DNA of 63,946 bases, filler included, from Rozella allomycis CSF55 (GCA_000442015.1; 13 parts of 12 records of this genome joined end to end with filler, not necessarily neighbours in it), one strand, 5' to 3'. Numbered from the whole stretch's first letter, positions 10,294 to 45,344 are shown. The notes: generated from the sequence alone by a model not told the origin. Made by a program: numbers and translations.

Positions 10294-12287
10294 NACATAT
10301 TGCATGAGAGTCAAATAGGTACAATAACTCTATAAATATTATAAGAAATATCTAATTTTAATGATGTAAAAAATCAGCTCATGTCAAATCAATTGGAAAA
10401 CGAAGAGCGAAAAAAGAGCATGCACTTATTAAAAAGTGAAATCAAACGATTGAGAGATTGCAATGAAGTGATGAAAGAACAGCAGTAAGCAAGCATTGAA
10501 ATCAAAAACTAGCCAGAAGGATATGAAATCCAAGTTGAATCTTCAGAGACAAGAATACGAAACTATTATTAAAAGACACTTAAGTTTCATTGATAAATTA
10601 CTTGCAGAGAAGGATTCTTTGGCCAAAAAATGCGACGATTTTTCTGTAGAATTGAAAAACCTTGAAAAGAGTTTTAAGGAAAAGGAAAGATTAAATTTGT
10701 TTTAAAATCAGGTTCAAAAAGCACAAGATGACGCCAGACTAGATTTTATGAAACAAAAAGAGTTGTGGAACGCTTCTGAAAAACTCAAAAGGGACAAATG
10801 GATTAATGAAAAGTCTAAACTAATCAAGGAAAACACAATTAAAAGCCTTGAACCAGAAATACAAAAGATAGTCGCTGTAAGATGACATAAAAAGAATATC
10901 AAGCAACATAAGCAGCAGATGAGGAATCTAGAAGAAAAACTTCGCACTGATTTTGTAAATGAAAAAAATGAGCTCATGGAGAATCATGAGAGACATATTG
11001 TAAAAAATAACTTTGGTTTCTTTTATAGTCAATAATGAAAGAGAAAATCAATAAAGAAAAAGAAACTAAATTGCTTGAAGAAATTGAGTTTATGAAGAAA
11101 CGCTATCGTCGAGAAAACGAACAAAGTCTTTTAAATTTTGACAGCATGAAGAGCAAATTAATTTTGGAATTTAACGAAGAAAAGGAAAATTTAATTGCTT
11201 CTCATAAGAAGCATGTTGAAAATATGCAAAATTTTCATCGAGGGCAAATTGAAGAGCTACAAGAGACAATAGCTAGATGCAAATTAGAAGGAATAAGCTC
11301 ATTAGAAGAGCACAAGAGAAGATCATTAGGAGATGTAATTAATTAAAGATTACTGAAACAGATGAGGCAACTTGAAGAAAAGATCAAACTGGAAAAGGAT
11401 GAATGGCAGAGTCATCTACTGATAAAGCTTGAAAAACAATTTAAAGAAAAGGAGGTAAGAAATTTAATTGAGAAACTTGTTGAAAGAAATGATTGCAAAG
11501 CTTCGCACAGAAAGGGATTTAGAAATTGACAATATTGTCCAGCGACTAGAAAAAGAAAATAGTGAAATAATAAAGCAGATTGAGTCAACGAACGAGAGAG
11601 CAATTAGTACGGAGCGAAATGTTTTTGAAAAACAAATTAAATCTGTAAAAAATGGATGATATGATTTTCATTAGATGAAAGAAAAAATCAATGAGTTTGA
11701 AAAGAATTGCAAGTTGTTGCAAGAGGCTAATTTGGAAACAGCTAAAAAGTGTGAGCAATTGGAAGAACTGAAAAAAGAGATGGATGAGAAGCATAACGAA
11801 TTAGTAAATAGACTCTGATTTTTTATATAGTCCAATGAATTGAGAGAAAAAGAGAACATGATACTCCAATTTAATAGACAAAGACTTGAATTAAAAGAAG
11901 AAATCAGTAACTTAGCATTCTTCGTGTTTAAAGGAATGGGATTTAAGGAAGAGTTGAGTGCCAAAGACACCGCCTTTGAAACACTTCATAAAAAGTTTCA
12001 AGAAGCAAGTCGACGATTCGATGAAATGCAATCTTTAAACAAAGCAGAATTATCAAGGGTAAATCAAGAAAAAGTATTCTATCCCATCAATTTTGAATAG
12101 ATCGAAGCCATTGACAAAATAGAAAAGCAAGTCATGGGAATGTTGACAGTAAAGGATGAAATTATCAAAAACCTTCGCCTACAAATTGAAGAATCAAAAT
12201 TCAAGATTATAAACTTAGAAAATCTTGTAGAGAAACAAAGAAAGGTATATTCAAAGCATTTGAATGTTATAGGAACTGCTGTTTTAA
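10294..12287 (+). CDS. CEP131: Centrosomal protein CEP131/AZI1 homologue, 5'-truncated, about 11 introns of 27-30 nt
   Basis: Spliced product contains YETIIKRHLSFIDKLLAEKDSLAKKCD, EKLKRDKWINEKSKLIKENTIKSLEPEIQKIVA-QHK and ERDLEIDNIVQRLE, matching the CEP131 coiled coil. Stop at 12285-12287. Confidence 0.82.
10685..10711 (+). other. 27-nt GA-AG intron in CEP131
   Basis: gaaagattaaatttgttttaaaatcag contains an in-frame TAA. Removing it gives ...KSFKEK|VQKAQ..., colinear with CEP131. No GT or GC donor is available in the right phase. Confidence 0.7.
11455..11482 (+). other. 28-nt GT-TG intron in CEP131
   Basis: gtaagaaatttaattgagaaacttgttg; removal gives KEKE|KEMIAKLRTERD. The nearest in-phase AG would make a 46-nt intron. 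Confidence 0.6.
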
Positions 12288-12317
12288 TAAATCTGTCAAA
12301 TATTCTTTAATTTTATT

Positions 12318-13777
12318 TTAATTTGTACTTTGCAGCCAGAATGAAAGATATAAAAGTTCAGGGGCTAAATCTGGACTCAGTTTGGCAAATTTATGATCGG
12401 TTTCGAATTGCCCACCTTCATATTTGAGAAAGAAAACCTGGAAATTCATTACGCTACCCCAAACTGAAACCTTTCGAAATAATAATTCTTCCAACTCCGC
12501 ATGCCATGTATCGATGTCTTCCTCCTCATCACCACTAAACGCTGGAAGATTCAACAAAAAACCGTAGTAAGTCGGCTTTTTTTGTTTGTTAATGATATTT
12601 AAATGTTTGCTGGAGTATAATTGATCCATTTGATTTATGACGTCATCTTTCTGTTCTGTAGCTAATGTTAAAACTAAGTCATAATTGTTTCTAAAAGATA
12701 TAAAATTGAATAATTTACTTTTCATTGTATTCAGTTTCAATTTCACTTATGTATCTTTTGAATTCTTTTTCAACTAAATTGCTCTTTACGAAATTCCCAA
12801 CAAGAAGCCCTCTTTCTACTTTTTCCAACCCTCCGTGATGACGAAAATGTGATCTACAAAGATACTCAACCCACAATTGAGTTTTGATTTCATTGCCGTT
12901 TTGGTTTGTTATTATATTTGATAATGGCCCACTTAATCTAACATGAACTCGAGAGCGAATCCTATCAAAATTTGGCATTGATCTCTTTTTTAGGTGTTTA
13001 ATCGTCATATATTTTGTTTGAACAAAACTAGCTATAATTCTATTTTCGTCTATTTGCTTAGGCGAATTCAAATTTTCTCTACTCAAAGCCAAATGACGGA
13101 CATTTAACCAATCAGCAACTTGTATCCAGTTTAACACTCTATGAATAGATGAGGGTAATCTATAATAATGATTTTGATAGGGTACCTATGATATTCAGTC
13201 TTGTTCCACATGTATGAATGTTCCAAATCAAATAGAAAAACATCCATTCCTATCTCTGCACATTCTAATGCTATAGCTAAAGAATCATCGACTATAGCAA
13301 ATGCTCCGAGCTCTTGACAAATTGTAGACTTGCTTTTTGGCACCAAATTCTTTTTCTCTTCCTCGCTTAAATAGTGATTCCCAAAGTATACTCCCTTGAA
13401 AATTCCCGGGTAATACCTTTCAATAAATTGTATCGTTTTTTCTTTTATCGTTTCCTGTCTTGAGGTCACGACTACGAGATCAAACTTGAATTGTAACGCC
13501 TACAATAAACTTTTCTTCACGAACATACTTTTAAAACTTCAAAGGCGCAAGGAACTGGTCTAACATTATCAAAATGTTCGCTATTGTAAAATATTCTTGT
13601 AATTTCTATAGATTCTTCAAGACTTACGTTCCAAACTTGCCAATAGCTGTATGAAGTAAAATCCGACAATTCTAAATTTGCATTGTAATTTTCATTGTAA
13701 AACTTTATCATTGCTTCATGAGTCATAGAGAGCACCTCATCAACATCAATAGCTAGGAGTGGTCTATTTATGGACAT
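12318..13777 (-). CDS. HAD-family 5'(3')-deoxyribonucleotidase (NT5C-like) with a long C-terminal extension; 3 tiny introns
   Basis: LAIDVDEVL (HAD motif I), VVTSRQ, PKSKS and AIVDDS. After a 26-nt intron the frame continues through ORF 12715-13137, then after a 28-nt intron into 12318. Confidence 0.72.
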
Positions 13778-43854: not shown

Positions 43855-44016
43855 GCTGCGTATTTTTTTGGGGGCTTGTTAAAGTACAAACCTGTGTACC
43901 TTTAATCAGCAATTCCATTTTAGTGGATTTTATGCGTTTGTGAAAAAAATCCTGGGAGAAAATAATTACAATTTAATTCCAATATTTAACAAAATAGAAC
44001 TCCAATTTGAATCAAT

Positions 44017-45344
44017 TTATTTATAGAATTCAAAGTCAAGATCAGTCTTTTTCACTTGAGAGCTGTATCCTTTTTCAAGGTCCTTGTTTAAAATCACATA
44101 ACGATTTTTTCTCACTGCAAGCATTCCGGCCTCTTGGCAAATAGCAGCGATTTCAGCACCAGAGAGTTTATCAGGTCTAGAAACAACTTGTTAAAAAGAA
44201 ATAATCAAATTTACAATCTTCCAAATCTACTTCGTCAGAGAGATTCATTTTGGATGTAATGGCTTGGAATATCAATCTCTTTTGACGACGATCTGGCGTT
44301 GGGAATTCAATCTTTCTATCCAATCTACCAGGGCGCAACAATGCTGGATCCAACGTATCAGCACGATTGGTTGCCATTATAACCTTTACCCTCAACAACA
44401 TTCATTTACCTTAACATTCACACTTTGATCAAACCCATCCATTTGCGTCAACAACTCAATCAAAATACGCTGGACTTCTCTATCAGCGCCAGTCTGTGCA
44501 TCAAATCTCTTTGTGGCAATCGCATCAATCTCATCAATAAAGACAATAGAAGGCGCATTCTCTTTGGCCAACTTGAAAATATCTCGAACCATTCTTGGCC
44601 CTTCTCCCAAATACTTTTGCACAAACTCAGATCCAACAACCCTAATAAACGATGCTGTCGTATGGTTAGCCACTGCTTTGACCAACATCGTCTTTCCAGT
44701 TCCAGGTGGCCCATATAGCAACACTCCACGTGGTGGATCTATTCCAATTTGTTTATAAAGATCAAAATGCGTCAATGGCAACTCAACAGCCTCTCTTATC
44801 TCCTGTTTTTGCATATCCAACCCTCCAATATCTGCATACGTCACATCCGGCTTCTCATCGGCACCTATCAGGTCACAAACTTTGTTTTACTCAGCAATGA
44901 AATAGAACTATCAGCTTCGGGTGGAAGAATATCAACAATCGCACTCGAATGTCGATGCAACGCTACACTACACCCTGGCTTCAACAATTCTCTATCCAAT
45001 GTACTCAATATTCTCACAACGCTTATATCATAAACTATCATTATTTACGTATTAGAACCTGACGCCGATCCAATAATCCCAGTGTTCTCATCAATTGGTT
45101 CAAGAAACTGTCCAATAGTCAAAGGCACACTCTTAATACGTTTCACTTCCTCTTGTGCGCGCAAAAGTTCACTTTTCAAGTTCTTTTGCTCGTCTTTGAT
45201 GTACTCTTCTTGCAAATTGAGAAATTCTAATTGTCTCTGCAGCTTTTTGTATCTAATATACAAGTCCTTTTCTTCCTGCTTTTTAAACTATTTTGATGAC
45301 TTGTTTTCTATTACTGAGGCTGGATTGGGAGAAACGTCCGTCAT
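44017..45344 (-). CDS. RPT3: 26S proteasome AAA-ATPase Rpt3, 5 introns of 26-28 nt
   Basis: [49 protein letters not shown] and [27 protein letters not shown]. Confidence 0.96.

Follow-up and report, generated by a model that had tools for sequence, protein, structure and literature searches.

Introns of 25-32 nt in Rozella allomycis, some lacking a 3' AG, with an adenosine anchored to the 5' splice site

The genes in a 63,946-base stretch of DNA from Rozella allomycis CSF55 (the window) are interrupted by very short introns, 73 in 14 genes between positions 10485 and 45314, which range from 25 to 32 nt in length and of which five, about 7%, lack the 3' AG, a signal that is among the least variable in eukaryotic genes. 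Our combined findings suggest that the spliceosomal introns of this organism have probably shrunk to ~27-28 nt and are defined by a minimal 5' signal together with a fixed span. The window consists of 13 contigs (1.3-13.4 kb) joined by N44-TTAATTAATTAA-N44 spacers, across which no feature can be read, and holds ~35 single N besides the spacers. The finding covers contig 3 (10295-23737), contig 4 (23838-32196), contig 5 and contig 6 (34659-46808).

The organism is a rozellid. Single-exon queries gave 100% identity to annotated R. allomycis CSF55 proteins, namely LST8 (annotated as 'wat1', P0001), a kinesin (P0121) and a coiled-coil protein (P0241, P0242). Read with the standard code, the exons form long open frames, and each in-frame TAA or TAG that was traced sits within a short GTA...AG segment. 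A ciliate code (table 6, TAA/TAG = Gln) was considered and excluded because the in-frame TAA and TAG codons fall in introns; the exons match Rozella at 100%. These matches likewise exclude a dicyemid, which had also been considered. R. allomycis parasitizes the water mould Allomyces and is closely related to the Microsporidia.

We estimated intron length in two ways. First, without any prior on length, the window was scanned for GTA..AG segments of 15-70 nt that connect open frames of 40 codons or more on both sides and whose read-through is blocked. This yielded 12, 9, 16 and 10 cases at 26, 27, 28 and 29 nt, and roughly 1-8 cases, mostly 2-5, at each of the other lengths, whereas a control scan with GT[CGT]..AG donors was flat, with no length peak. 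A version of the scan with 30-codon flanks gave a flat background; it was too permissive and was replaced by the 40-codon version. Second, gene models were built with a dynamic-programming gene finder, hand inspection (LST8 and three gene starts) and comparison with homologues and public models, and gene-finder junctions at gene boundaries were removed. Lengths in the resulting curated set of 73 introns are 25 (1), 26 (13), 27 (17), 28 (18), 29 (13), 30 (7), 31 (3) and 32 nt (1), with 61 of them at 26-29 nt. The donor is GTA in 71 introns, GTT in one and GAA in one, so that GT is found in 72 of 73 and GA in one, and the fourth base is A in 47. Acceptors are TAG (35), AAG (24), CAG (9), TCG (3) and TTG (2). 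The last G is invariant (73/73), and AG is present in 68.

These segments must be removed for the conserved proteins to be made. Retention would shift the frame at 49 introns and bring in an in-frame stop at 22 others whose length is a multiple of three (3n). The remaining two are stop-free 3n introns: 19977-20006 rests on a gap of 10 residues in 10/10 homologues and 11907-11933 on the public model. A preliminary description, drawn from the sequence, had proposed window-wide introns of about 26-32 nt, mostly 26-29 nt and nearly all beginning GTA, and this picture is borne out by the curated set. Its list of acceptors, AAG and GAG besides YAG, survives in part: AAG is common, but GAG was found in 0/73 introns, and the GAG cases given by the gene finder fall at gene boundaries. 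Outside the finding, the gene finder placed further GTA junctions at 4537-4564 (-), 53891-53922 (-) and 59166-59193 (+), ending in AAA, TCA and TTC; these have no terminal G, lie in poorly conserved genes and may be artefacts.

Sequence motifs inside the introns are scarce, as the preliminary description had also held for CTAAC and the polypyrimidine tract. Among the 70 introns curated at that point, CTAAC occurs in none and CTRAY in five, with no excess over the 4.4 of shuffled sequences. No polypyrimidine tract was found in the same 70: the longest pyrimidine run averages 4.27 nt against 3.99 in shuffles, and pyrimidines account for 0.54 of the last 12 nt and 0.50 of the rest. Nor does any of the 73 introns carry the U12-type 5' site [AG]TATCC or a TCCTTAAC-like branch box; in the four GTATC donors the next base is G, T, A and A.

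Six introns depart from GT-AG. Three belong to LST8, all on the plus strand: intron 2 (36986..37013; 28 nt, GTAAAG...TCG), intron 3 (37127..37154; 28 nt, GTAAAC...TCG) and intron 4 (37303..37330; 28 nt, GTAATT...TTG). Intron 1 of a KIF12-like kinesin gene (19345..19371, +; 27 nt) reads GTAATT...TCG. The last two lie in a coiled-coil gene: intron 6 (11455..11482, +; 28 nt, GTAAGA...TTG; public gene O9G_005141) and intron 2 (10685..10711, +; 27 nt), which has a GA donor (GAAAGA...CAG). For each site we enumerated all excisions of 12-140 nt starting from -75 to +45 nt of the donor that keep the frame and leave no stop, scored the resulting protein segment with fixed flanks against five homologues, and summed the scores, with 2212-4191 candidates per site. 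The proposed 27- and 28-nt excisions are tied for best or lie at most 4 points below the best at 6/6 sites, and all six give gap-free alignments to homologues. Shifting the boundaries while keeping the same protein yields GT together with AG at none of the six. Thus the preliminary description, which had listed three TCG, two TTG and one GA-donor case at 27-28 nt, agrees with our positions and alignments.

The public gene models take another course at these sites. They force GT-AG there and lose conserved residues in doing so. Were they right, the introns would be longer and canonical (46, 60, 69 nt and more) and the conserved-looking segments within them would go unexpressed, a possibility we consider extremely improbable. 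Each site does offer 4 to 27 canonical in-frame alternatives, and the annotation uses such alternatives (P0001, P0121, P0242), but the best GT/GC-AG choices score 50-430 points lower, they delete core elements, and the DNA that they skip is open and can be aligned residue for residue to homologues. Nor do the introns they imply fit the 25-32 nt range seen in the other 67.

In LST8, excision of 36986-37013 scores 2937 (top 2941) among 2826 candidates, 64 points above the best of 23 canonical alternatives (2873); 37127-37154 scores 3123 (top 3127) among 2908, 430 points above the best of four (2693); and 37303-37330 is tied best at 2871 among 3210, 122 points above the best of 16 (2749). The spliced LST8 product has 314 amino acids, and its alignment to six fungal LST8 proteins runs through two WD40 blades with no gap, whereas the public model P0001 (279 amino acids) reads through or skips the non-AG sites and is garbled or gapped exactly there; reading through intron 2 costs it one WD40 blade. 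At the kinesin site 19345-19371 the excision is tied best at 1187 among 2212 candidates, 240 points above the best of 12 alternatives (947). It restores the conserved RVVVRIRPMN..E motif, the first strand of the motor, while P0121 has a 60-nt GT-AG intron instead and misses 11 conserved residues.

Support is strong for these four sites and moderate for the two in the coiled-coil gene. There, 11455-11482 is tied best at 980 among 4191 candidates, 50 points above the best of 27 alternatives (930, a 22-nt GTT..AAG excision), while the public model, with a 46-nt GT-AG intron, reaches 908 and is gapped over 6 columns. Excision of 10685-10711, tied best at 2328 among 2778 candidates and 62 points above the best of 12 alternatives (2266), takes out an in-frame TAA and nine codons absent from homologues; with the public 69-nt GT-AG intron a gap of 13 columns remains. 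Homologues from a full HMMER search share 36-37% identity over the whole length, and both excisions are gap-free against nine of them (P0243-P0248, P0262, P0268, P0271).

The odd ends might instead be faults in the DNA sequence. On that account the odd acceptors would be mistakes of the assembly, or would belong to one allele where the site is heterozygous, and the functional sequence would have AG (or GT at 10686). We consider this very unlikely. In its favor are the ~35 single N in the window, the scattered sites at which one sequencing run, X5, differs from it, and the reach of our comparison with sequencing-run contigs, which was made on contig 6 and so takes in the contig of three of the six sites. 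Within contig 6, record 2 of run X1 covers 36697-37935, the whole of LST8, with 0 differences, although X1 is possibly the source of the window. Record 11 of X5, from another sample, covers 37189-37903 with three substitutions and one deletion, none of them in 37303-37330, so the TTG acceptor there is independently confirmed. Moreover, six strikes on splice dinucleotides that leave no frame-breaking error in the flanking conserved exons do not look like random error. Neither six such random errors with the flanking exons intact, nor five random substitutions on the 73 '-2' positions of a 64-kb window whose exons stay open and conserved, is in our judgment credible. Contigs drop rare variants, which leaves room for a second allele.

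The 3' ends follow distance from the 5' end. In 65 of the 67 GT-AG introns the acceptor is the first AG at 24 nt or beyond, and, of the 52 internal AGs, 50 are at most 23 nt from that end and go unused; intron 41657-41682 of the V-ATPase subunit d gene, for example, passes over a CAG at 22 nt. The two exceptions are 17529-17559 in a RabGAP-TBC gene, which skips a GAG at 27 nt, and 18383-18411 in an E2F/DP gene, which skips an AAG at 26 nt. In none of the five non-AG introns does an AG occur at 24-31 nt, and all five finish at the modal length, 27-28 nt. Their next AG comes at 32, 35 and 35 nt in three, and none occurs within 45 nt in the other two (37127-37154 and 19345-19371). All five have T at -3 and A at +4. 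If drawn from the lengths of the canonical introns, six non-canonical introns would all measure 27 or 28 nt with P = (29/67)^6 = 0.007; the link between non-AG ends and modal length that had been suggested in the preliminary description thus holds within the window.

The one internal signal is an adenosine placed relative to the 5' end: 47 of 72 introns (65%) have A at +23, compared with 35% A inside introns overall (binomial P = 1.8e-7) and with 34% at +23 in 460 decoy GTA..AG segments from the same window. By length, it is found in 12/13 introns of 26 nt, 12/17 of 27 nt, 12/18 of 28 nt and 7/13 of 29 nt, as well as in four of the six non-canonical introns. When the introns are aligned at their 3' ends no position exceeds 45% A, with 33-45% at -4 to -7. 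The expectation that branch signals would be lacking was therefore right as to motif and wrong as to position. We regard the +23 adenosine as a candidate branch point, and a physical ruler may set it: since the adenosine is anchored to the 5' end, such a ruler may place the branch point, after which the next AG, 3-9 nt downstream, would serve as the 3' site.

Splicing in R. allomycis may thus proceed as follows. A minimal 5' signal, GTA usually followed by A, would be recognized, and a fixed span from the 5' end would lead to the adenosine at ~+23, taken as the branch point. The first usable AG 3-9 nt past this adenosine would then be cut, giving lengths of 25-32 nt, with GAG being avoided. 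Where that stretch has no AG, TCG or TTG 4-5 nt after +23 would be used, keeping the last G and the T at -3 but not the A at -2. In spliceosome structures the last G of the intron pairs with its first G and the -2 A contacts the branch adenosine, and an invariant last G with a variable -2 A fits these contacts. Our tentative, if plausible, account is therefore a ruler anchored at the 5' site, with the branch adenosine ~23 nt in, a cut shortly after it, a terminal G that suffices, and AG preferred though replaceable by YG. The preliminary description had gone further and called the -2 A dispensable. This is an overstatement, since AG in 68/73 introns means that the -2 A is strongly preferred. 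Its proposal that the acceptor is set mainly by distance from the 5' site is upheld as far as distance goes; the pattern fits equally well whether the distance is measured from the 5' site or from the branch point.

A somewhat doubtful alternative accepts the non-AG introns as real and has the 3' site chosen by scanning from a branch point of unseen features to the first YAG or else YNG, in which case the constant +23 would merely reflect strong selection for minimal intron size. Scanning from the branch point to the first AG operates in yeast and animals, and the first-AG rule (65/67) is what it predicts; the two exceptions to the rule are consistent with GAG being disfavored and with a minimum spacing from the branch point. 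Against scanning, no branch-like motif rises above shuffles, and the sole positional signal is anchored at the 5' end, with 65% A at +23 versus 33-45% at -4 to -7.

Another alternative, which we think quite unlikely, is that the sites are real but spliced poorly or unproductively, so that expression of a few genes such as LST8 is braked by intron retention or by a frameshift after splicing to the AG at +32 or +35. Three of the seven LST8 introns are non-AG, an AG lies 4-7 nt downstream at three sites, and very short microsporidian introns are spliced inefficiently, according to work cited in PMC13644364. Two of the sites, however, have no AG within 45 nt, and the productive product must arise often enough to keep the exons conserved.

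Several points weigh against very short introns defined by a minimal 5' signal and a fixed span. The curated set was first built by a gene finder that favors 24-33 nt; reading frames then fix most choices, but in-frame alternatives persist, such as 26 versus 29 nt at 18383-18411. Stop-free 3n introns are under-detected, as they are invisible to frame-based prediction, and intron counts are thus lower bounds. The sample is one 64-kb window. The margin at 10685 and 11455 is no more than 50-62 points, and the coiled coil there is of low complexity. For the two TCG sites of LST8 the sole confirmation comes from X1, the possible source of the window, and the contig 3 sites lie outside the comparison with other runs. 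Three of the five non-AG acceptors fall in LST8, a clustering that a uniform genome-wide rule would not predict. The +23 adenosine is missing from 25/72 introns and is present in only one of the seven of 30 nt, and a branch point just 3-6 nt from the 3' site would be unusually close. Finally, none of the runs listed as containing the stretch is an RNA run, and X10, the one RNA run under this species name, gave no match over 34659-46808; that the RNA is cut at exactly these sites is a step we infer from the sequence.

Tiny introns in themselves are already known. Paramecium has introns of ~25 nt and Stentor of 15-16 nt. The ciliates resemble Rozella in narrow lengths, GTA starts, weak internal signals and a branch A near the 3' end (in Rozella a candidate), but keep GT-AG and differ in genetic code and lineage. 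Ultra-short introns are described, in the main text of Hadjez et al. (2026, PMC13644364), for ciliates, Microsporidia, dicyemids and myxobolids. There, myxobolids and Dicyema japonicum have median lengths of 27 or 22 nt, against 28 nt in Rozella; as in Rozella, little more than GTa is left of the 5' signal, a polypyrimidine tract is absent, and the distance between weakly conserved As and the AG grows with intron length, which anchors these As on the 5' side. With a peak below 30 nt, a minimal GTA and a 5'-anchored A, the Rozella introns fall within the ultra-short class as that text describes it. All three are parasites with compact genomes, but myxobolids and Dicyema are animals and Rozella is a rozellid. 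The same main text gives AG as the 3' signal; CG and TG acceptors are not reported in it, and Rozella does not figure there.

Among relatives with short introns, the Microsporidia, such as Encephalitozoon cuniculi, are the closest. In the passage of Whelan et al. (2018, PMC6349667) that deals with it, the Rozella S23 gene is given two putative introns of ~30 nt without the 5' and branch motifs of E. cuniculi. Microsporidia have few introns, with extended 5' and branch motifs, whereas Rozella has 73 in 14 genes that are almost motif-free. Fungal median intron lengths start from 29 bp in the relevant passage of a study that includes Rozella (PMC8042348), and a Rozella intron density of 2.5 per kb is given in one of PMC8476143. 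In the literature searched, which did not cover James et al. 2013 and its supplements, we found no account of the length distribution of Rozella introns or of non-AG acceptors in them. A scan of metagenomes with P0001 returned 32 loci at 23-71% identity and no close rozellid.

The unusual terminal pairs have counterparts elsewhere. Parada and colleagues are said to have reported in 2014 rare GT-TG, GT-CG and GA-AG introns of U2-type spliceosomes. In Table 1 of a re-annotation of Ganoderma lingzhi (PMC11590231), these pairs make up 0.024% (GT-TG), 0.021% (GT-CG) and 0.038% (GA-AG) of junctions, compared with 2, 3 and 1 of 73 introns here, where they are tied to the modal length of very short introns. 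Such pairs are presumably handled by the major (U2-type) spliceosome. The AT-AC introns of the U12 type also tolerate non-AG 3' ends, but the termini in Rozella are G...G and not A...C.

The introns are spread over genes of varied function, most of them identified by Pfam matches on single exons. In contig 3, the coiled-coil gene (10381..12287, +), which matches P0241 and P0242, has 11 introns, at 10485-10512, 10685-10711, 10877-10903, 11000-11028, 11335-11361, 11455-11482, 11645-11674, 11804-11830, 11907-11933, 12074-12100 and 12245-12272. Four genes on the minus strand follow: an unnamed gene with no Pfam family (12321..13843; three introns, 12691-12718, 13160-13185 and 13500-13528), a Rag GTPase of the Gtr1/RagA family (13900..14927; PF04670; five introns, 13970-13999, 14093-14122, 14266-14293, 14534-14561 and 14851-14879), the RabGAP-TBC gene (16268..17860; PF00566; 11 introns, from 16406-16435 to 17752-17779) and the E2F/DP gene (17938..18927; PF02319; two introns, 18383-18411 and 18793-18820). 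The kinesin gene (19118..21279, +; PF00225) has 11 introns. One of these, 19977-20006 (+), is the stop-free in-frame 30-nt GTA...AAG intron noted above, which P0121 translates through, with 10 extra residues that are absent from 10/10 kinesin homologues. In the kinesin tail, 20789-20906 (+), P0121 lacks 12 residues of the curated model and has three extra, which implies other splice choices in a non-conserved part. An RCC1-repeat gene (21330..22733, +; PF00415) with six introns, from 21391-21417 to 22431-22458, completes this series and is followed by a tRNA-Gln(TTG) at 22763-22834 (+). At the end of contig 3, 23074-23304 and 23434-23694 repeat one another with a spacing of ~360 nt and carry the same open frames twice.

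In contig 6, an unnamed gene (34659..36426, -; two introns, 34811-34836 and 36178-36206) precedes LST8 (36723..37868, +), whose seven introns, three of them non-AG, lie at 36904-36932, 36986-37013, 37127-37154, 37303-37330, 37409-37440, 37560-37587 and 37728-37755. Three of the four differences of X5 fall inside the canonical intron 37560-37587 (+), two substitutions and a 1-nt deletion that makes it 27 nt; the variation appears genuine and clusters in an intron whose length stays in the normal range. The V-ATPase subunit D gene (38048..38885, -; PF01813; four introns, 38321-38346, 38564-38590, 38671-38696 and 38815-38840) is flanked on either side by a tRNA-Glu(TTC), at 37909-37980 (-) and 39022-39093 (-). 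At these two places and at the tRNA-Gln, summed contig depth is very high in the sequencing runs compared. Next comes a gene of the PGA_cap family (39202..40307, +; PF09587), a bacterial capsule-synthesis family, here with three typical introns of 26-30 nt (39625-39654, 39755-39780 and 40016-40045); it is possibly an old gene transfer that later gained introns of the host style. The remaining genes are the V-ATPase subunit d (AC39) gene (41535..42629, +; PF01992; introns 41657-41682 and 41855-41881), an F-box/ankyrin gene (42850..43960, -; Pfam F-box and Ank) with the single 25-nt intron, 43875-43899, and an AAA ATPase gene (44030..45344, -; PF00004), which we read as proteasome-subunit-like, with five introns (44187-44214, 44384-44409, 44865-44890, 45022-45048 and 45288-45314). 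Upstream of the latter, summed word depth over 45189-45998 is 50-200x that of neighboring bins in runs X1 and X6, which suggests a multi-copy or widely shared short element.

Elsewhere, contig 4 (23838-32196) holds a retrotransposon of non-LTR type with RVT_1 and RNase_H domains in long intron-free frames, a higher G+C content (0.41), strong strand skew and repeated segments at ~24300-27500. Contig 7 starts with a tandem array (46909-47545) of 6.3 copies of a 101-nt unit at 99% identity.

A share of ~7% non-AG acceptors appears to be undescribed, and the high proportion of CG and TG ends at the modal length, the adenosine anchored at the 5' end and the systematic errors of public models look new. 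About one intron in 14 without the -2 A would provide a natural test case for what the second catalytic step of splicing needs when the intron hardly exceeds the active-site span of the spliceosome. If our reading is true and 7% holds genome-wide, hundreds of Rozella introns would lack AG, and a corresponding fraction of public gene models would contain errors at conserved residues. Six sites are mis-modelled publicly and a seventh, the stop-free kinesin intron, is translated through, so phylogenomic and gene-content studies that use Rozella proteins would inherit deletions in conserved domains. Rozella being the best-sampled sister of the Microsporidia, its splicing may inform how the microsporidian spliceosome was reduced.

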